Positions 3,284-31,425 of a stretch of 39,688 bases of DNA are shown here, piece by piece. The number at the start of each line of letters is the position of its first letter. Position 1 is the first letter of the stretch. A model generated the notes under the pieces. That model was not told the DNA's origin. It was given only the letters and a program-made list of their open reading frames with translations, and ran no database searches. Source of the DNA: a virus; IMG/VR virus record IMGVR_UViG_3300045988_007515, positions 1 through 39,688 of that record; one strand, 5' to 3'. The translations under genes were made by a program, and so were the position numbers.

Positions 3284-3956
3284 TTTCGTCCCCCCAGATC
3301 TGATACAGCGCCCGGACCATGTCGGCGCGGGTCACCGTGTCACCGGCGTTGGCATCCGTCAGCAAGCCGTGAGCCTCGCCCCATACGAGGGCTTGATCTT
3401 CCGTCTTGGCGGACCGTTCCCAGAACAGCAGCATGGTAGGCACCTTCCGGGAGCTGGTCACCTTCCCGCCGGGGAAAATACCCTGCGTAGAGCCGCCGCC
3501 GTCCAGCATGAGGGCATCCACCACGCCCAGCCCCAGCAGCTTGTTCTGGAGCTGCTCGCGGGTCAGGCTGGCCTTGTCGCACCACAGCACCACCTTGCCG
3601 TTGGCCAGCCAGCCCACCGCCGTCCGGGCGGCAGGCCGGGCCACGTCCGTCGTCAGATTCCGGTACAGCTTGGAGCCGCCCTTGAGAATCGGGACGCCGG
3701 AGAGGAAGGATCCTCCCCGGTCCGTCAGCATCTTCGGCAGGCCGTCAGAGCCGATGGAAATGCCCCAGTCCTGATACGCGTCCCGGCTGATGATCTTACC
3801 GTCGATCACCGTCCAGCCCACCGGCTGAAATTTCCCGTTGAACAGGTAGCCGTTGATGATGTGGGTGCAGCCGGTCTTGGTCTTGATCTGCGCCGGGGTC
3901 AGCTTGCCGGTGTTGTGGTAGATCTGCGCACGGGCGCAGTCAAACGTATCAACCAT
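3276..3956 (-). CDS. phosphodiester glycosidase (NAGPA/DUF2233-like) protein with SLH-like C-terminal tail
   Basis: RTAVGWLANGKVVLWCDK...LGVVDALMLDGGGSTQ matches the NAGPA-domain pattern; C-terminal GDTVTRADMVRALYQIW is SLH-like. Confidence 0.6.
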   Translation of the reverse strand: MVDTFDCARAQIYHNTGKLTPAQIKTKTGCTHIINGYLFNGKFQPVGWTVIDGKIISRDAYQDWGISIGSDGLPKMLTDRGGSFLSGVPILKGGSKLYRNLTTDVARPAARTAVGWLANGKVVLWCDKASLTREQLQNKLLGLGVVDALMLDGGGSTQGIFPGGKVTSSRKVPTMLLFWERSAKTEDQALVWGEAHGLLTDANAGDTVTRADMVRALYQIWGDENG

Positions 3957-4275
3957 TGATTCTCACGGCCTTAGTGGCGTGGCCGTCCTCGTCAAAGGTA
4001 ATGCGGTAATGGCCTTCGGGGACCCAGACCTCCTCCTCGGTGTTGGCTTTGGCGGGGTCACGCCGCATGTAGTCATGCAGGTGCTTCACGTCCTCCGGCT
4101 CCTTCTCCGCAGGGATGAAGCCCTCCCGCATTTCGTCCTTGGTCCAACCAGACACGCCGCCGTCGGGATTCAGGTGGAAGTTGGCACCGGCCTCCTTCAG
4201 CTCTGCGTTGATGGTTTCCACGGCCTTGCCGTTCTTCTTGCCCTCGTTGATGATGTTCTCGTAGATCTTTTCCAT
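3949..4275 (-). CDS. hypothetical protein in the lysis block
   Basis: Start MEKIYENI at 4275 with GAAAGGGG upstream; 108 aa. Confidence 0.55.
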   Translation of the reverse strand: MEKIYENIINEGKKNGKAVETINAELKEAGANFHLNPDGGVSGWTKDEMREGFIPAEKEPEDVKHLHDYMRRDPAKANTEEEVWVPEGHYRITFDEDGHATKAVRING

Positions 4276-4320
4276 GGTATGTACCCCTTTCAAATTTTTC
4301 GGTTGATTCTTCAACCGGTT

Positions 4321-4527
4321 TTAACTGTTCTTGTCTTCGTTGACTCTCTGGGTGCCGAAGTAAAAGCCGATGACCACCGTGAAGATGGTCAGGAACTCGC
4401 TGCCGCTAATACTCTCCCGCAGGGCCAGCACCGCGAACACCACCGTCAGGGTGATGGTCACGAGGCTTTTCACCGCAAGCAGATTGCCCAGCCGTTTCTT
4501 GATGTTTTCCATGTCTCCTCCTTTCAT
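4321..4527 (-). CDS. holin (two TM segments)
   Basis: 68 aa (or 63 aa from ATG 4512); two hydrophobic helices LVTITLTVVFAVLAL and FLTIFTVVIGFYF; charged C-terminus; ATGA overlap with the upstream gene. Confidence 0.7.
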   Translation of the reverse strand: MKGGDMENIKKRLGNLLAVKSLVTITLTVVFAVLALRESISGSEFLTIFTVVIGFYFGTQRVNEDKNS

Positions 4528-4748
4528 CGGTCGCTCACATGCTCCAGATCCTGAATCCTGTGATTGATTACTTTAATCTGTTCCTCGATCACCGGCACCC
4601 GCTGGGCAAAGTTGTTGTGCTCCCGCACCTCGCGGGTCAGCTCGTCCAGCTTCGTATCGGTGATCGCTTGCTGTTTTCCGTTGGCGATGAGCACGCCCAT
4701 CAGCGTCAGCCCCCCTGTAATGAGGGCGCAGATTATCGTCTCCGTCAT
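4524..4748 (-). CDS. XhlA-like membrane/coiled-coil lysis-associated protein
   Basis: 74 aa; N-terminal TM (IICALITGGLTLMGVLIA) then a coiled coil; directly precedes the holin. Confidence 0.55.
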   Translation of the reverse strand: MTETIICALITGGLTLMGVLIANGKQQAITDTKLDELTREVREHNNFAQRVPVIEEQIKVINHRIQDLEHVSDR

Positions 4749-4756
4749 AACACACT

Positions 4757-4778
4757 CCTTAAAGTTGCAGTTTTAAGG
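4757..4778 (-). promoter_or_regulatory. hairpin that pairs with part of the SD of the first lysis gene
   Basis: CCTTAAA / TTTAAGG stem with an 8-nt loop (GTTGCAGT on plus). On the minus RNA the 3' arm TTTAAGG overlaps the AAGGAG SD of the 4748 start. Confidence 0.45.
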
Positions 4779-4809
4779 CCAAATCCGCCAAATTCCGACA
4801 CGGCCCCTG

Positions 4810-4818
4810 TGGTATCAT
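4810..4818 (+). promoter_or_regulatory. extended -10 promoter candidate for the plus-strand micro-ORF
   Basis: TGgTATCAT; no good -35. Confidence 0.35.
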
Positions 4819-4840
4819 CCTCTCAAAGGAGGTGACCCAA

Positions 4841-4981
4841 ATGACCCAAGCCCAGAAACAAGCCTACGAGGAACTCTACTACATGACCGTAGAGTTGCTC
4901 GATGAGCTGGACGATCTCAAGCGCAAGATCATCGCCCAGCAGGCCGCGTCGGAAGCATTGTGGGATCTGCCGGAGGATTAA
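4841..4981 (+). CDS. 46-aa acidic helical micro-protein on the opposite strand to all neighbours
   Basis: AAAGGAGGTGA 5 nt upstream of ATG (7 nt from the AGGAGG core). My translation is MTQAQKQAYEELYYMTVELLDELDDLKRKIIAQQAASEALWDLPED. Below the ORF-track length cutoff. Confidence 0.5.
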   Translation: MTQAQKQAYEELYYMTVELLDELDDLKRKIIAQQAASEALWDLPED

Positions 4982-4989
4982 CCCTCCGT

Positions 4990-5099
4990 CCCCCGTCCCT
5001 TGCCCCGTCTCCGGGAGCGGGTTTCCAAAGGGAGAGGGCCGCAACCCCCGTCCCTTGCCCCGTCTCCAGGGGCTGGTTTCCAAAGGCGGGGGCCGAAGC
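4990..5099. repeat. two tandem ~55-bp GC-rich direct repeats
   Basis: cccccgtcccttgccccgtctcc...ggtttccaaagg at 4990 and again at 5045; first 23 nt and an internal 12 nt are identical. Confidence 0.85.
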
Positions 5100-5222
5100 C
5101 CCCGGCCTTTGTGCCAGAGGGGGTATGGGGGACGGTGGCGTCCCCCATGTTTCGGGTGGGGGTTTAAGGGGGAGGGACCTTTGCGCCAAAGGTTCCTTCC
5201 CCTTGCCCCCTTTGAGCGGTGC

Positions 5223-5390
5223 TCAGCCCTCCGGCTTTCCCTTTGTGCCCCCAAACTCAGCAGGCACCAGCTCCGGCAGGCCGCACTCGTTGATGAGAAT
5301 ATCCGCCACCTGCTGTTTCAGCTTCGCGGGGACCTGCTCAAATTCGGTTTTCCCTAAAATCACTCTTTGCGCAAACAACATTGCCATCAT
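5223..5390 (-). CDS. XkdX-like small phage protein
   Basis: Start at MMAMLF (5390) with AAAGGAGC upstream; 55 aa; GKTEFEQVPAKLKQQVADIL pattern; lies between fibre and holin. Confidence 0.55.
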   Translation of the reverse strand: MMAMLFAQRVILGKTEFEQVPAKLKQQVADILINECGLPELVPAEFGGTKGKPEG

Positions 5391-5448
5391 GTCTCTTGCT
5401 CCTTTCGACAGTAAAAAATATAGGGTCAGGGCGGCCTCCGCCCAGAAC

Positions 5449-5793
5449 TCACGCATAGACGATCTCTGCCATCTCGGCAATGCAGTCCTCGTAAAACTCC
5501 GCTTGATTTGCCTGAGCATTGATCTGCTCCTTGAGAAGTTTATTTTCATTTTCCAGCTTTGCTACTCGCGCATTCACCGTTGGTATAGGTTCCGGTTCCG
5601 GCTCCGGCATGGTGCCCGGCGTTAGGGCCGTCACGATGCCGTCCTGAGCCTCTACTCCCACAAAAGGAAAAGTTTCTGGCAGCGCCACTTCCTCCGGAAT
5701 AACGGCCCAGCCATTCGGAACGGGCAGCAGCCCACTGGTGGTCTGATTGCGGTGCGCCCCGTTTTTCAACGGTGTAAGTTCAATGATAATCAT
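5449..5793 (-). CDS. hypothetical tail-fibre-associated protein (XkdW-like position)
   Basis: Start MIIIELTPLKNG at 5793 with AAAGGAG 7 nt upstream; 114 aa; PEPEPEP linker plus coiled coil. Confidence 0.55.
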   Translation of the reverse strand: MIIIELTPLKNGAHRNQTTSGLLPVPNGWAVIPEEVALPETFPFVGVEAQDGIVTALTPGTMPEPEPEPIPTVNARVAKLENENKLLKEQINAQANQAEFYEDCIAEMAEIVYA

Positions 5794-7156: not shown

Positions 7157-9273
7157 GTGCCCTCCTTGTCCCAGTACACCACAACGCAGCCGGAAGCGCC
7201 CATCGCGCCATCCGCGCCAATGCCAGGATAACTGTAGATTTTCCAATACGAGTGAGATGCACCACTCTCGTCTGTCCACTTAACTTTCTTCCGCCGGCCC
7301 TGCGTGCCGCCTTTGCCACCGGCCCCGCCGTCTCCGGTTCCCGCCCTTGGCTTTGCCACGCCCGTCCGGGCGAAGCTGTCGCCGCTGGCCACGTCCGTGT
7401 AGCCATTTTCATAGCGCTTGCCGTTGGCGGAGGAATACGCCCCGAAGGTTGTGTTTTCGCCAAAGGCCACTGGAAACTCCTGCCCATCGTTAATATTGAT
7501 GGTCCCCGTCCAAACCAGACCGCCTAAACCGTCTGTACCGTCATTGCCTGCGTATTCCCACGTGCCGTCAGTTCCTCCCGTGCCGTTGCCGCCCTTGCCC
7601 ACAAGAATGACCCGCAGAGACTTCTTGCCCGCCGGGGCCTTCCACGTGCCGGGTGTGGTGATAACCTCCCGGCCCTGATACAAAAAGCTGCCGTCTGCCT
7701 GTAGCAGCTGGCTCTGGCACCCCTGCATGACGCCGCCCGAAAATTGGAACGTCTGCATGGTCAGCCGCGCCGTGGTGGCCTGACTTTCGTCCAGCCACAC
7801 CGTCTCCACGTCACCGATCTCAGAGGATGGATCGCCCCGGCCCGTCAGATCCAGCACGTTGCCGCCGTAGGTGGAGAGGATCAGCCGCGCCGCCGCCAGC
7901 GCCTGCGCCTCCGTCTTGATGAACGGATTGTCAATGCTCACCGTCTCGCTGGACGATGTGGCGTTTCCGGACACGATGTATTTTGTGCCCGTCCCATCGT
8001 TGAGGGTGAAGATCAGCGCCGCCACGTCCCCGTTGGCTTTCATGGTGGGGTAGCTGTTGAGGTTGTCCAGCGTCACCCGGTTTCCCTCGCTCCACAGCGG
8101 CTCGGCGGTCAGGTCTCCGGTGGAGGCATCCGCCCGGGGCCATGTCCCCGTGGCCTGACACACCCAACGGAGGATATCGCCGCACGATTTCCCTTGCAGA
8201 TCGTCCGCCGCCCGCACCGTCACCGGCAGTGCCGTGTAATTGGGATCCACGTGCCACCGGTCCTGGAAGTTGACGCCCAACTGCGCCGCCAGAGCGCCGA
8301 TCCACCCCCCAAGCGTAGTGGGTAGTGTGGAGGGTGCCAAAAATTCCCGGTTTGCCAGCAGGCCGATAATGTCCACCAGATTCCACTGCATCGTCAGGCC
8401 GTTGTCGCCAGTTTTCCAGCCGCCGGAGTACTGGTAGAAGATCCCCAGCCGCTTGTACTCGTCCGTGCCGTCCGCCAGCCGAACGCCCAACGATACGTCG
8501 ATGCCCTGCCGCTCCTCAATGGATTGAAACAGCCCGTTTTTGCTTCGCGGTTCAAACCGCCGGGACAGGTTGTCGATCTTGAGGGTGCACGTGCCATACG
8601 GCAGCGCCGTGGCTGCGATGTTGCCCTGCTGCTTCACGTTAAACTCCGCGATCATTCCGCCGTCCCAGCCCTCGTACACGCCGGGGACGATCTCCACCAC
8701 CCGCATCCGCCGCCCGGGCCGTGACCACTTGGTCACCGTTACCCGGATAGCGTCAGGGTTGTTGACCGTGAAGCCCTCCAGAGCCACGCTGGCCGCTGTG
8801 TTCCCGGTGTACGTCCGCGTGTGGTACGCCGTGCCGCCCTGTTTGACCTCCACCGTGAAATCCTCCGGAAGCCCGTCGTAGTCATTGTCCGGAAAATACA
8901 CGGAGCACGCCTGCAAGACAGACACGCCGGAGAATTGCAGTTCCACCCACGGCGGCGTGGAAAACGTCCCGTCCGTGCTGGAAAGAACGTTGCCAATGTA
9001 GCCCATCTGGCCCACCGCCTGAGTGGGATCGTCCGGGAGAAGGTCCCACGTCCCGTCCAGCGCCCACCGGTCACGCTCTAACGTAGCGTACTTGGCGGGA
9101 TTTCCAAAAACCTTATCGTGGAGCTGCTCCGGCTTGCTCCACGGAATCTGCCCGGAAGTCTCCCCGGCACCAAACACGATGTCCGGGGAAATGATGTCAA
9201 TGACCGCCCGCAGCAGCACCCGCCGTGCGTCGCCTGTGATCGCCGCATGATACGCCTGCCCGCTTTTAATCAT
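7153..9273 (-). CDS. tail-associated (Tal-like) baseplate protein with Gly-rich C-terminal domain
   Basis: 706 aa directly after the Dit-position gene; C-terminus GKGGNGTGGTDGT...GTGDGGAGGKGGTQG. Confidence 0.6.
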   Translation of the reverse strand: MIKSGQAYHAAITGDARRVLLRAVIDIISPDIVFGAGETSGQIPWSKPEQLHDKVFGNPAKYATLERDRWALDGTWDLLPDDPTQAVGQMGYIGNVLSSTDGTFSTPPWVELQFSGVSVLQACSVYFPDNDYDGLPEDFTVEVKQGGTAYHTRTYTGNTAASVALEGFTVNNPDAIRVTVTKWSRPGRRMRVVEIVPGVYEGWDGGMIAEFNVKQQGNIAATALPYGTCTLKIDNLSRRFEPRSKNGLFQSIEERQGIDVSLGVRLADGTDEYKRLGIFYQYSGGWKTGDNGLTMQWNLVDIIGLLANREFLAPSTLPTTLGGWIGALAAQLGVNFQDRWHVDPNYTALPVTVRAADDLQGKSCGDILRWVCQATGTWPRADASTGDLTAEPLWSEGNRVTLDNLNSYPTMKANGDVAALIFTLNDGTGTKYIVSGNATSSSETVSIDNPFIKTEAQALAAARLILSTYGGNVLDLTGRGDPSSEIGDVETVWLDESQATTARLTMQTFQFSGGVMQGCQSQLLQADGSFLYQGREVITTPGTWKAPAGKKSLRVILVGKGGNGTGGTDGTWEYAGNDGTDGLGGLVWTGTININDGQEFPVAFGENTTFGAYSSANGKRYENGYTDVASGDSFARTGVAKPRAGTGDGGAGGKGGTQGRRKKVKWTDESGASHSYWKIYSYPGIGADGAMGASGCVVVYWDKEGT

Positions 9274-9693: not shown

Positions 9694-11229
9694 TCATGCA
9701 ATGGGGTTCAGAATTGGCGTACCGTTTGCCTGCGCATAGCCGGTCAGCGGGTCAAACACATAGGATGCAAATTTGGTCATGTCAGGGAACATCAGATTAA
9801 ACGTAAATGATCCGCCGGATTGCTTCCCTTCGCACAGCCCATTTACAATGGCCGCGCTGGAAATGCCGATGCCGGAATCCGCAAAGCCTACCGACGCCGT
9901 GCCGAAGTCCAGCCCGGAGGTAATGCCACGCCTGATATTGCCGTATTCGTCATTCCACCCCTCGCCGAGGCCCAACGCCATGTTCTCGCCGATCCCGGCG
10001 AACACGCGGGACGGGGAATGAATACCAAGAACGCCCTTCACTCCATCCACAATTCCGCCGAAAAACCCGGTTACCTTCTCCTTGATCCAGCTTCCCATCG
10101 CCTTGATTCCCTCCCAAACGCCTCGCACGATATCTTTTCCGATTTCGATAATGTCTGGGATAGAATCAACCAACGTGTCAATGATCGTTGCCACCATATC
10201 CAAAACGCCCGTCACAAGCTGTGGGAAGTTTTGTGCCAACCCCTTTACCAGTGCAATAACCATCTGTATGCCCAGATTGATTATGTCCGGCAGTTTCTCT
10301 ACCGCGTAAGAAACAAACCTTTCAATCATTTCTGGCCCTTTTCCCTGCACAATCGTTCCAATGTTTTCAAGCACCCGCTCTATGACCGGCAAAATGTTTT
10401 CCGCCACGGTCACAGCGCTATCAATTAGATTGGTCGCCAGTTCTGCAATGTCCGCATTTTCGTCGCCAAGCCCTGTTACAAAGTTTTCATACGCAGCCTT
10501 CATCGACGAAATAGACCCCTGAATTGTTGTCGCGGCTTCTAACTGCGTTGTGCCCGTGATTCCCATTTCCGTCTGGACTGTGTGAATGGCATCCACGATG
10601 TCCGCATAGCTGTCAATGGTGTAATTGGTGTAGTTTCCCTGTGCGGCATTTAAGGCGTTAGCATCGTCGATCAGCCGCTGCATTTCCTCCTTGGTGCCGC
10701 CGTATCCGAGCTTCAGGTTATCCAGCATGGTATAGTTTTGCTTGGCGAACCCCTGATAGGCGTTCTGGATGGACTGCATGTCCGTGCCCATCTTATTTGC
10801 GTTGTCCGACATGTCGGTAATGGACAGATTCGCCTTTTCAGCCGCTGCATCCGTGTCGCCGCCCATCGATTGCAGCAGAGACGCAGAAAATGCCGTCACC
10901 GTAGTCATGTACTCGTTTGCGCTCATGCCAGCCGTCTGGTATGCGTTCGCGGCGTACTGCATCACGGTATCGGCAGAAGACTTAAAAAGCGTTTCCACGC
11001 CGCCGACCAGCTGCTCATATTCGCCGTAATTTTCTACGGCCTGCTTTGTAATGGCGACCGCAGCCGCGCCAGCCGCTACAATCGCGGCGCCGCCAACCTT
11101 TGCCGCCGTTGCAAGCCCGCCTTTCAGTTTGCTTGCCAACGCATCCGCTTTTTCTCCTGTTTCAGAAAATCCGCTGTCAACATCGCTGTCATCGACGCTG
11201 ATTTTCACAAATAGGTCTAATAAATTCAC
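9694..11229 (-). CDS. tail tape measure protein
   Basis: 511 aa, Ala/Gly-rich helical; NAYQGFAKQNYTMLDNLKLGYGGTKEEMQRLI core typical of tape measure proteins; lies after the G/GT chaperones. Confidence 0.8.
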   Translation of the reverse strand: MNLLDLFVKISVDDSDVDSGFSETGEKADALASKLKGGLATAAKVGGAAIVAAGAAAVAITKQAVENYGEYEQLVGGVETLFKSSADTVMQYAANAYQTAGMSANEYMTTVTAFSASLLQSMGGDTDAAAEKANLSITDMSDNANKMGTDMQSIQNAYQGFAKQNYTMLDNLKLGYGGTKEEMQRLIDDANALNAAQGNYTNYTIDSYADIVDAIHTVQTEMGITGTTQLEAATTIQGSISSMKAAYENFVTGLGDENADIAELATNLIDSAVTVAENILPVIERVLENIGTIVQGKGPEMIERFVSYAVEKLPDIINLGIQMVIALVKGLAQNFPQLVTGVLDMVATIIDTLVDSIPDIIEIGKDIVRGVWEGIKAMGSWIKEKVTGFFGGIVDGVKGVLGIHSPSRVFAGIGENMALGLGEGWNDEYGNIRRGITSGLDFGTASVGFADSGIGISSAAIVNGLCEGKQSGGSFTFNLMFPDMTKFASYVFDPLTGYAQANGTPILNPIA

Positions 11230-30250: not shown

Positions 30251-30990
30251 CACACATACCCCCAAGCGTCCTCGCATTTGCAGCCGGGGCCTTTTGCGCC
30301 CTTACGGCCACCGCGATCCTGTTCTTTGGCAAGCCAGCGAGTAATGAATCCACGCACACCACGCGCCGTTTTCCGCTTCGCCGGGTTATTCAGGCACCAT
30401 TCCCGCATCTCCCGCAACTGCTGTATCACGTCGACAGCAGGGTATACGCCTGCCCATTCCTGGCATTGCTCCTGCGACACCGGATATTCAGTGCCGTCAT
30501 TGAGGGGGATGGAAACCACCGGCGGGGATGCCGTTTGCGGCTCGCCGCCTACTTCTTCTGGATTCTGGATTCTGGATTCTGGATTCTGGATTGGATTACG
30601 GGCGCATTTGCTTTCACCTGCTTGCAATTGATTGCAATTGATTTCAGATGTAATCAATCCGTCAGCAGGTGCCGGGAATTTGCTTACTTTGTTCCTCACC
30701 GTCTGGTGTTCGCTCCAGTTTGGAAAACACAGGTACGGTTCTCCGTCAACTTCATAGAGGATCACAGAGCCTATGGTCGCCAATTCTGCAAGCGTCTTAC
30801 TGATCGTTCCCTCAGTCACACCTTTTCTGCGGGGAAATACAAAGCCTTTGAGCAATTCCGGGTCTGCGCTGCCGCGCCCATAATCATCAACGTAGGTGAT
30901 CAGGTACGCCCACAATCGGAATTGGAAATCCGACATTGCGTTGATGCTTTTGCTCGTCCTGATACTATCCTTGATGATCCTGTTCGGCAT
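30250..30990 (-). CDS. replisome organizer / replication initiator (DnaD/DUF4373-like N-terminus)
   Basis: 246 aa; FQFRLWAYLITYVDDYGRG N-terminal pattern; internal iteron-like repeats; lies next to ssb. Confidence 0.55.
   Translation of the reverse strand: MPNRIIKDSIRTSKSINAMSDFQFRLWAYLITYVDDYGRGSADPELLKGFVFPRRKGVTEGTISKTLAELATIGSVILYEVDGEPYLCFPNWSEHQTVRNKVSKFPAPADGLITSEINCNQLQAGESKCARNPIQNPESRIQNPEEVGGEPQTASPPVVSIPLNDGTEYPVSQEQCQEWAGVYPAVDVIQQLREMREWCLNNPAKRKTARGVRGFITRWLAKEQDRGGRKGAKGPGCKCEDAWGYV
30557..30591. repeat. five tandem copies of the 7-bp unit tctggat inside the replisome-organizer gene (iteron/origin candidate)
   Basis: Read directly; encodes IQNPESRIQNPE. Confidence 0.9.
30622..30641. 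repeat. two tandem copies of ttgcaattga (each contains the CAATTG palindrome)
   Basis: Read directly, 31 bp from the heptamer array. Confidence 0.85.
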
Positions 30991-31002
30991 TCAACCACCG
31001 CC

Positions 31003-31425
31003 TTAGAACGGGAGGTCCCCATCATCCTCAACCTCGCTGAAACCGCTCTGCGGTTCGCTCTGCGGTTCGCTCTGCGGTTCGCTCTGCACCGTGTCGCCGC
31101 CGTCCCGCTTGGAATCGCCAAAGTATACGCTGTCGGCCACGATCTCGGCACTGCGGCGCTTGTTGCCGTCCTTGTCCGTCCAGTCACGGATCTGCAGGCG
31201 GCCCTCCACCACGGCCATGCGGCCCTTAGAGAAATACTTGCTCGCAAATTCGGCTGTGTTGCGCCATGCCACCACATCGATAAAATCCGTTTCCTTCTCG
31301 CCGGACTGGGACTTGAAATCCCGATCCACCGCCACGGTGAAGGATGCGACCGCCGTGCCGCTGTTGGTGCGGCGCAATTCAGGGTCACGGGTCATCCGGC
31401 CCATCACAATAATTCTGTTCAGCAT
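31003..31425 (-). CDS. ssb: single-stranded DNA-binding protein
   Basis: MLNRIIVMGRMTRDPELRRT OB-fold start; acidic tip DDGDLPF; 140 aa. Confidence 0.9.
   Translation of the reverse strand: MLNRIIVMGRMTRDPELRRTNSGTAVASFTVAVDRDFKSQSGEKETDFIDVVAWRNTAEFASKYFSKGRMAVVEGRLQIRDWTDKDGNKRRSAEIVADSVYFGDSKRDGGDTVQSEPQSEPQSEPQSGFSEVEDDGDLPF
31045..31087. repeat. 3.6 tandem copies of the 12-bp unit gctctgcggttc (encodes the QSEP repeat in the SSB linker)
   Basis: Read directly. Confidence 0.9.

Follow-up and report, generated by a model that had tools for sequence, protein, structure and literature searches.

An antisense micro-ORF and an inserted hairpin array at the tail/lysis boundary of a phage genome from a gut Clostridia host

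The BOX elements of Streptococcus pneumoniae (boxA-boxBn-boxC) are modular intergenic repeats that have fixed end/core modules and variable tandem units of ~45 to 55 nt, form extensive predicted stem-loops, are cotranscribed with their neighbors with proposed effects on expression, and encode no dedicated transposase (PMC3049150). Here we describe a repeat family with a similar plan, in which four hairpins (H0-H1-H2-H3) are joined to 1 to 5 tandem units of about 41 to 57 nt. One copy lies in a 39,688-nt stretch of DNA (IMGVR_UViG_3300045988_007515; hereafter, the window), which derives from a phage or prophage whose host is a gut member of the Clostridia. This copy is in a 474-bp intergenic gap (4749 to 5222) between a CD1375/XkdX-like late gene and the lysis genes, together with a micro-open reading frame (micro-ORF) on the opposite strand. 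We regard it as probable that the gap combines an accessory micro-ORF gene with one inserted, dispensable hairpin array of the BOX/REP-BIME kind that is transcribed in the late mRNA, and that it is not a dedicated lysis-timing device. The loci and contigs collected for comparison carry L numbers.

The likeness to BOX is one of form, as the hairpin-array family has no sequence similarity to BOX. It is GC rich, occurs in Oscillospiraceae and in phages, has no terminal inverted repeats, and is apparently low in copy number. In addition, hairpin arrays are sense biased and located right after stop codons, whereas BOX elements are overrepresented between convergent genes. In BOX, boxA and boxC stimulate and boxB inhibits downstream genes in an orientation-dependent manner (PMC3049150).

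Another point of comparison is provided by the REP/BIME and REPIN elements of Enterobacteria and Pseudomonas. Liang, Rudd and Deutscher are said to have found in 2015 that REP elements are frequently located a short distance from the stop codon of the preceding gene. Like the hairpin arrays, these elements are extragenic and consist of GC-rich imperfect palindromes (20 to 40 nt) in mosaic arrays, as described in PMC2817692 and PMC3733652; these papers, together with PMC3049150, present REP/BIMEs as transcribed within operons and as stabilizers or attenuators of mRNA. Transcription is attenuated by BIMEs, and other repeats contain RNase sites, those of RNase E being found in ERIC elements and those of RNase III in Correia elements (PMC3049150). 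The palindromes H1, H2, and H3 of the window (39, 24, and 31 nt, respectively) are within the REP/BIME size range. However, the GTAG or CGTC tag given for REPs in PMC3733652 is not conserved in the hairpin arrays: CGTC is present only in H2 of type alpha, GTAG is present only in some versions of H0, and neither is conserved across the sequence types of the family. The units of hairpin arrays are head-to-tail direct repeats, whereas REPs alternate in orientation. REPs exceed 100 copies per genome (PMC2817692), whereas no high copy number was seen for hairpin arrays in a genome scan for exact copies of H2. The hairpin-array element is also longer (150 to 350 nt), with conserved single-stranded linkers, and no RAYT was identified with the arrays (complete host genomes were not searched for RAYT).

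MITEs, the miniature transposable elements with inverted repeats (e.g., Correia, ERIC, and RUP), are similar to the hairpin arrays in size (~100 to 350 bp), in their high degree of base pairing, and in their insertion polymorphism between related genomes, and the junctions in the window carry a short direct repeat. When transcribed, MITEs can carry RNase III/E sites (PMC3049150). Unlike MITEs, the hairpin arrays lack terminal inverted repeats and are not AT rich, and a candidate target-site duplication was found at one site only, where it coincides with microhomology. Palindrome-associated transposable elements (PATEs) derived from IS200/IS605 insert 3' of a fixed tetra- or pentanucleotide and have subterminal hairpins at both of their ends; the hairpin arrays differ from them in having a variable 3' end and no such fixed sequence on the 5' side. 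They differ from intrinsic terminators in that no GC-rich hairpin followed by a U/T run was predicted inside the array.

The micro-ORF and the insertion in its terminator

The micro-ORF (4841 to 4981, plus strand; ATG at 4841, stop codon at 4979 to 4981) encodes a 46-aa acidic protein and is a real gene under purifying selection. The median ratio of nonsynonymous to synonymous substitution rates (dN/dS) is 0.12 over 15 distinct coding variants, and the numbers of variable sites at codon positions 1, 2, and 3 are 15, 9, and 36, respectively. The micro-ORF or a remnant of it is encoded by 30 viral contigs, and its product has 26 related protein clusters (80 to 96% identity), mostly called at 46 aa. 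A Shine-Dalgarno sequence (AAAGGAGGTGA; 4825 to 4835, plus strand) lies 5 to 6 nt 5' of the ATG and is kept in relatives. An extended -10 element (TGGTATCAT; 4810 to 4818, plus strand) with no recognizable -35 element can be read from the sequence, and this position reads TGGTATCAT, TGCTATACT, or TGGTATTAT in 23 related loci. Since a consensus sigma-70 scan detected no full promoter at the micro-ORF, we refer to this site as a predicted promoter. The description of the micro-ORF as a plus-strand unit in the sequence-only reading is thus borne out by its dN/dS and by the conservation of the -10 and Shine-Dalgarno sequences. 

The AlphaFold model of the protein is a single helix (residues 3 to 41; predicted local distance difference test [pLDDT], 94.5). 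No Pfam or PHROG family matched the protein, and a profile search with it retrieved only 5 clusters among 1.84 billion representative proteins. The protein family has a narrow distribution, and some phages have lost it. Just 5' of the -10 element (window positions 4790 to 4806), there are direct half-repeats, which read TTCCGAC...TTTCGAC in relatives and ATCCGCC/ATTCCGAC in the window. These half-repeats could be an operator. The micro-ORF promoter may cause transcriptional interference.

In all loci, the micro-ORF is antisense, with the last gene of the tail on one side and the first lysis gene on the other, whichever gene the latter may be (e.g., an XhlA-like gene in the window and L003, and a gene for a "MEKKF..." protein in L004). 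In seven contigs (L025 to L031), the promoter and the N-terminal codons have been deleted, while the last 13 to 22 codons and the terminator hairpin are kept. The micro-ORF therefore behaves as an accessory, moron-like unit, and its terminator seems to be retained independently of it. As in phage morons, a predicted promoter of its own and a terminator accompany a gene that is placed on the opposite strand between late modules and is lost in some relatives. It differs from them in that its product belongs to no known family and that it keeps to the tail/lysis boundary with unusual constancy; expression in lysogens would be an extrapolation from the morons. One 72.6-kb contig (IMGVR_UViG_3300045988_090059; L002 and L041) contains a micro-ORF locus without the element and, separately, a cassette with a holin gene, the element, and a gene for an MEKKY protein; it may represent two prophages or a chimeric assembly.

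Comparison of the window with its relatives reveals how the hairpin array came to lie beside this gene. The 474-bp gap was recovered at 99.8 to 100% identity in three full assemblies and one partial further assembly from four samples, and it is therefore not an assembly artifact. In relatives, the micro-ORF ends within a hairpin (CCGGAGG-ATTRAC-CCTCCGG) that is directly followed by CTTTTT. As no U-run follows this hairpin on the minus strand, it would terminate transcription on the plus strand only. In L003 and L022, the stop codon of the XkdX-like gene overlaps that of the micro-ORF in the palindrome TTAA. In the window, a remnant of the terminator hairpin (CCGGAGG-ATTAAC-CCTCCG; 4970 to 4988, plus strand) overlaps the last codons and the stop codon, and the T-run is now at about 5234 to 5246, displaced by the insertion. 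Thus, in the window, as in one IMG/VR contig (L001/L006), ~238 bp separates the hairpin from the T-run, and this insertion is missing at the homologous sites of L003 and L022 (i.e., empty sites). Alignment of the filled and empty sites places the direct repeat CCCTCCG at 4982 to 4988 (left copy) and 5227 to 5233 (right copy). We conclude that the element entered the micro-ORF terminator hairpin secondarily in the window's phage lineage.

The junctions of the insertion resemble motifs of the element itself, i.e., its 5' CCGCAGGGG and the unit-internal GACGAGGG. The flanking direct repeat was found at the window copy only, where it coincides with microhomology to CCGCAGGGG/GACGAGGG, and the other filled/empty pairs show no duplication. 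Since both junctions fall in CGGAGGG-like microhomology, microhomology-mediated recombination appears more plausible than transposition. The insertion removed the T-run from the micro-ORF terminator, and plus-strand transcripts may consequently extend into the element and into the XkdX-like gene.

The element is not a regular companion of the micro-ORF. Among the 30 loci with the micro-ORF or a remnant, each of which covers the lysis cassette, 28 have no copy of the element within 3 kb, and only L006 carries one. We accordingly abandoned the idea of one copy per lysis cassette, given the sister phages without any copy within this distance. On the evidence of these genomes, the copy in the window is dispensable.

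Architecture and covariation of the hairpin-array family

The inserted element is 238 bp long (4989 to 5226), and its sense strand is the minus strand of the window, as for the late genes. In the sense direction, it begins with a small hairpin (GAGC-GGT-GCTC; 5214 to 5224), which occupies the position of the family hairpin H0 in the covariance-model alignment. Because this hairpin overlaps the TGA stop codon of the XkdX-like gene (5223 to 5225), that stop codon is supplied by the inserted DNA. H1 follows (5166 to 5204), with 18-nt arms (5166 to 5183 and 5187 to 5204) and a 3-nt loop, and then H2 (5125 to 5148), a perfect 10-bp stem reading ATGGGGGACG-GTGG-CGTCCCCCAT (arms at 5125 to 5134 and 5139 to 5148). 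H3 (5081 to 5111; sense, CAAAGGCCGGGGGC-UUCG-GCCCCCGCCUUUG) has arms at 5081 to 5092 and 5100 to 5111 and includes GGGGGC-CGAA-GCCCCC at 5088 to 5103. The 3' side consists of two tandem 55-nt units (4990 to 5099), each with a hairpin, GCCCC-GTCTCCA-GGGGC (5057 to 5073 and 5002 to 5018), and a GGTTTCCAAAGG motif (sense, CCUUUGGAAACC). Tandem Repeats Finder reported 4990 to 5111 with a period of 55, 2.2 copies, and 85% matches (score, 172), and a 23-mer core of the repeat occurs twice in the window (0 expected).

The G+C content across the block is 0.65 to 0.68. When a 261-nt block was compared with its shuffled versions, the folding z scores were -4.0 for the minus strand and -4.3 for the plus strand. 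No terminator-like site was predicted inside 4989 to 5226 on either strand, and the ends of this interval have no terminal inverted repeats, every inverted pair being an internal hairpin. The sequence-only reading had listed the plus-strand unit, the 55-nt tandem repeats, the hairpins, and the G-tracts of this region; direct reading, Tandem Repeats Finder, and an inverted-repeat search located all of them where it had placed them, and its view of the block as structured agrees with a fold ~4 standard deviations better than that of the shuffles and with the compensatory changes described below.

Several other identities of the block were considered and set aside. The 55-nt period and the indels between copies are not multiples of three, so coding by the block is ruled out, and the long ORFs there are by-products of GC-richness. 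The two units are contiguous, without spacers, and differ by G>A, A>G, and G>T. With no adenine-specific differences and no unique spacers between the units, they are neither a template/variable repeat of a diversity-generating retroelement nor a CRISPR array. A possible likeness of the 5' end to a type I-C CRISPR repeat was dropped, as the pairing is weak.

ARAGORN called a tRNA-Arg(tcg) at 5117 to 5213 on the plus strand, which would make part of the block a tRNA or tRNA-like gene. We give this almost no credence and treat the call as a false positive: it spans 97 nt, a cloverleaf does not accommodate the 10-bp and 18-bp hairpins, no hit to the Rfam tRNA model falls in the block even at an E value of 10, and the L006 copy is called tRNA-Glu instead, while 12 other family copies give no call. 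A G-quadruplex on the minus strand, also proposed in the sequence-only reading, fares little better. The canonical pattern (GGGGCAAGGGACGGGGGACGGAGGG; 4982 to 5006, minus strand) is indeed present, with a single other match in the 39.7-kb window. However, the sense strand shows the pattern in only 3 of 65 family copies, the fourth G-tract was contributed by the phage side of the junction, and the G-tracts are engaged with C-tracts in very stable hairpins; a G-quadruplex is thus highly improbable as the functional feature of the block.

The window copy belongs to a larger family. The hairpin ATGGGGGACG-N4-CGTCCCCCAT recurs in 22 other viral contigs, in which the whole block aligns at 81 to 95% identity. 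Scans of metagenomes and genomes added copies from human-gut assemblies, an uncultured Oscillibacter, and Neopoerus faecalis (Oscillospiraceae); matches in Myxococcales, Kofleriaceae, and Kineosporia were unrelated hairpins. A search of the viral contigs for the pattern CCCCTCTGGNCACAAAGG gave no matches. When the conserved linkers (GGCACAAAGG...CTTTGGAAACC, H3) served as the anchors of a scan, it retrieved copies with the same hairpin shape and wholly different H1 and H2 sequences. On this basis, the family comprises three sequence types that share one architecture and are sometimes found at the same site in related phages. H1 occurs in three unrelated sequence versions at one site in related phages, and in the other types the sequence of H2 is different but folds into a hairpin of the same kind. 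The 5' boundary of the family is sharp (TGCTCCCGCAG), while the 3' end is variable, with 1 to 5 UUUGGAAAC-containing units spaced at 41 to 57 nt in 59 unique copies.

A covariance model (R1) built from 28 unique copies detected about 100 sense-strand copies in the DNA collected, and only one copy in the window (5075 to 5245, minus strand; 170 bits, E = 2e-38). In a model-based alignment of 60 distinct copies, 94% of the cells at paired positions are standard pairs, compared with 79% in shuffles and 46 to 61% in slid controls, and 29 of the 45 pairs have changed on both sides. Double-change cells number 378, compared with 94 in shuffles, and none of 500 shuffles reached 378. Compensatory changes affect 11 of the 16 pairs of H1 (helix 3), 6 of the 10 pairs of H2 (helix 4), and 6 of the 11 pairs of H3 (helix 5), the last with 95% of cells paired. 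An alignment fitted to the model favors the structure; RNAalifold recovered the same hairpins from an ordinary MAFFT alignment. The stems of the element are under selection.

The model-based alignment was searched exhaustively for additional helices; this yielded only nonspecific pairings of G-runs with C-U-runs and supported no long-range helix. A candidate pseudoknot (5' CCGCAG with the H3 loop CUGCGG) was rejected, since variation in the loops is not accompanied by corresponding changes at the 5' end. The element consists of independent hairpins in a row, with conserved linkers between them. At gathering thresholds, no Rfam 15 family matched the element in the window or in any of 11 loci that have full-length copies; permissive scans of three stretches returned generic hairpins only (best, Clostridiales-2 with 18.6 bits, the threshold being 58.6). 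We found no description of the element in the literature. The hairpin-array family is thus undescribed and has no matching Rfam 15 family.

Some chromosomal copies are followed by a second conserved, apparently structured module (GGGGATAATCGGTACGGAGTGGCGAGAAAATCCAGAAGTCTACTACCGGCTGCGC...GCCCGCAGTTGGAAGTGCGGTTGAAAA; L096 at ~8800 to 9000, L069 at ~4570 to 4700, L099, L106, and L111), which has no Rfam family at threshold. The L111 version shows compensatory-looking differences, and in L096 the module is upstream of hisS-aspS. A further module (AGCGGCAGCGGAAAGAG..GCAG.GGG.GTCC.ATTTGC) and its reverse complement recur downstream of the chromosomal copies in L077, L095, L105, L076, and L080, which suggests larger mosaics built from several repeat types. 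An int-alpA RNA (RF02996; 53.7 bits) was detected in an element-carrying phage contig (L033 at 4816 to 4881, plus strand).

Genomic contexts and candidate roles of the element

The more than 100 copies of the family that were gathered come from 13 or more unrelated contexts. In two phage cassettes, the holin stop codon is directly followed by the element; one has an 88-aa Hol44-type holin and the other a 63-aa holin of the window's type, and the copies precede the genes for a 68- to 133-aa protein and an endolysin. A second, divergent copy occurs 2.9 kb further downstream in phages. The holin junction of the window itself is an empty site, without any copy of the element. Chromosomal copies in Oscillospiraceae are located between recF and gyrB, pnp and mnmE, arcA and rnhA, and smc and ftsY, after miaB, and upstream of argF and of hisS-aspS; since they lie between chromosomal housekeeping genes, the family is neither lysis specific nor phage specific. 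The upstream gene is on the same strand as the element in 11 of the 13 contexts tallied. In the eight contexts measured, the element starts 1 to 42 nt past the stop codon of the upstream same-strand gene, and in the window this distance is 0 nt. The family is thus strongly biased toward the sense orientation and lies close to stop codons. The 5' flanks of the copies differ (GGGCT, CTGAC, TTCCC, CGTC, TTTTT, TTTGA, and others), with no fixed target sequence.

These contexts bear on the model of the sequence-only reading, in which the block and convergent transcription of the micro-ORF would form a dedicated cis-acting device that gates late read-through into the holin gene or insulates the holin in lysogens. 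Its premise that the late transcript must cross the block stands, in view of the minus-strand gene order and the lack of any predicted terminator-like site inside. The recurrence of the family at three positions in lysis cassettes, always in the sense orientation, the invariably antisense position of the micro-ORF at the tail/lysis boundary, regardless of which lysis gene comes first, and the higher conservation of the element than of its flanks between the window and L006 are also in line with such a device. However, a built-in lysis control is difficult to reconcile with a later insertion that has no counterpart within 3 kb in 28 of the 30 micro-ORF loci, with the placement of the same family between host housekeeping genes, with the lack of a U-tract terminator, and with a block that disrupts the micro-ORF terminator rather than forming one. 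The sequence-only reading had itself named, as a result that would count against it, related phages that lack the block with unchanged lysis regulation; relatives do lack the block, which answers that condition in part, the comparison being one of presence or absence. We consider the gating model improbable.

The insertion itself raises the question of whether the element is purely selfish, non-autonomous mobile DNA (similar to a MITE, REPIN, or PATE), i.e., hairpin DNA that is mobilized by a transposase encoded elsewhere and has no function for the phage. The many unrelated contexts, the sharp 5' boundary, the filled and empty sites with a 7-nt direct repeat, and the accessory status of the element all fit this explanation, and the strand bias could follow the direction of replication. 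The HUH transposases of IS200/IS605 and of RAYTs recognize hairpins (PMC6006769), and hairpins kept by compensatory changes would also suit such enzymes. On the other hand, the element has no terminal inverted repeats and no common target sequence at its 5' junctions, its direct repeat coincides with microhomology to its own sequence, it is GC rich rather than AT rich, its copy number appears low, no transposase was identified (complete host genomes were not searched), and single-stranded motifs are conserved across the three sequence types. Selfish DNA alone is therefore an unlikely account, though one that we take seriously.

The strong covariation in four hairpins, the retention of the same linker motifs at the same site by three unrelated stem sequences, the orientation bias, and the absence of any matching Rfam family might also indicate a new class of functional structured RNA, such as a protein-binding or sponge RNA acting through repeated GGA-containing motifs, a processing signal, or a ribozyme, which phages would have placed after the holin gene. 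This seems to us distinctly unlikely, given that no long-range or tertiary helices are supported beyond the pairing of G-runs with C-runs, that the number of units is freely variable, that the genes downstream vary too much for a riboswitch with a specific ligand, and that sister phages dispense with the element. A more specific proposal, to which we assign a low though slightly better chance, is a new class of cis-acting structured RNA positioned after stop codons, notably that of the holin gene. Its motifs (ACCCCC, GAAAC, GGCACAAAGG, and repeated UUUGGAAACC/GGAGAC with GGA cores) would recruit an RNA-binding protein or nuclease of the host or phage, and the number of units would tune the strength with which it sets the holin:endolysin expression ratio or couples this ratio to host physiology.

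We therefore return to the combination of an accessory gene and an inserted hairpin array as the probable explanation. In outline, the micro-ORF would be transcribed opposite the late genes at the tail/lysis boundary from its own extended -10 promoter, with its own Shine-Dalgarno sequence and intrinsic terminator, and the element, a secondary insertion in the terminator hairpin, would have arrived by microhomology recombination. The element is presumably transcribed within the late mRNA, from the XkdX-like gene to the lysis genes, because it has the orientation of the late genes and no U-tract terminator. By analogy with BOX, REP/BIME, ERIC, and Correia elements, a stable intercistronic hairpin array just after a stop codon probably modulates mRNA stability, processing, or local translation. 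In the window, a side effect is the separation of the micro-ORF terminator stem from its T-run.

Several observations weigh against this explanation. That the element is transcribed, and that it affects mRNA, is a prediction from sequence. The numbers of G-U and A-C mismatches (82 and 69, respectively) do not reveal which strand is functional, and there is room for a role at the DNA level. A pure role as a stable hairpin does not explain the conserved single-stranded motifs (ACCCCC, GAAAC, GGCACAAAGG, and UUUGGAAACC). The exact H2 hairpin was found in only two of 185,579 species genomes, with one copy each, in an exact scan that misses divergent copies; the copy number thus looks low, and REP and BOX families of the classical kind reach much higher numbers. 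The window and L006 share 95% identity in the element and only 86 to 88% in the flanking coding DNA, which hints at selection or a more recent transfer. Finally, the recurrence of the family next to holin genes at three sites could reflect a lysis-related role.

The surrounding genes and the meaning of the family

The late genes of the window are on the minus strand, in the order of tail fiber genes, the CD1375/XkdX-like gene, the 474-bp gap, and the lysis genes, and the deposited phages closest to the window infect Faecalibacterium and Flavonifractor. The CD1375/XkdX-like gene (5223 to 5456, minus strand) is convergent with the micro-ORF and matches PF23792 (E = 1e-4, below the curated cutoff) and phrog_1382 (E = 2e-11); public assemblies annotate a 77-aa gene at this position. 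On the other side of the gap, the first gene of the lysis cassette (4524 to 4748, minus strand) is divergent from the micro-ORF and encodes a 74-aa protein that we take as XhlA-like, although no Pfam or PHROG family match confirmed this label. It is followed by the genes for a holin (4321 to 4511/4527, minus strand) and a 108- to 121-aa protein (3949 to 4275/4314, minus strand). Next come genes for a NAGPA-domain protein and an M15 peptidase. The family matches in this cassette are phrog_1863, phrog_13256, PF09992, and PF08291.

The protein encoded after the holin (window positions 3949 to 4314, minus strand; L033 at 10369 to 10752; L050 at 8771 to 8977) starts with MEK(I/K)Y..IINEGKKNGK and has no assigned function. 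Its gene is directly 3' of the hairpin-array element in most phage copies, and in L050-type phages its C-terminal half stands alone (68 aa). Between the holin gene and this gene, the window has a hairpin (CGGTTGATTCTTCAACCG) followed by GTTTTAA (4300 to 4317, plus strand), which reads as a plus-strand (antisense) terminator. The same hairpin occurs just upstream of the micro-ORF, directly 5' of its promoter, in L004, L005, L007 to L009, and L014 to L021. In the phages of context B, the element is inserted between the holin stop codon and the counterpart of this hairpin. Elsewhere in the window, a tRNA at 22389 to 22457 (minus strand) scored 49.5 bits with Rfam and was absent from the ARAGORN output, and perfect short tandem repeats are present at 30556 to 30592 (TTCTGGA, 5.3 copies) and 31044 to 31087 (CGCTCTGCGGTT, 3.7 copies).

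The analysis resolves what seemed to be a single regulatory block into a real small gene and an inserted repeat, and it thereby avoids the wrong assignment of a lysis switch. The micro-ORF protein, which is short (46 aa), tightly conserved, lineage restricted, and fixed in position, is a good candidate for a small protein expressed from prophages. The family as a whole is a more interesting result than the particular copy in the window, as it reveals undescribed, covarying, orientation-biased, and modular hairpins that are common to the chromosomes of gut Oscillospiraceae and to phages and are not represented in Rfam 15. If the family acts as RNA, its three stem "alleles" and 1 to 5 units would provide a natural series for studying intercistronic structure and the relative expression of lysis-cassette genes. 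If the family is instead mobile DNA, it would serve as a marker of DNA exchange between hosts and phages.

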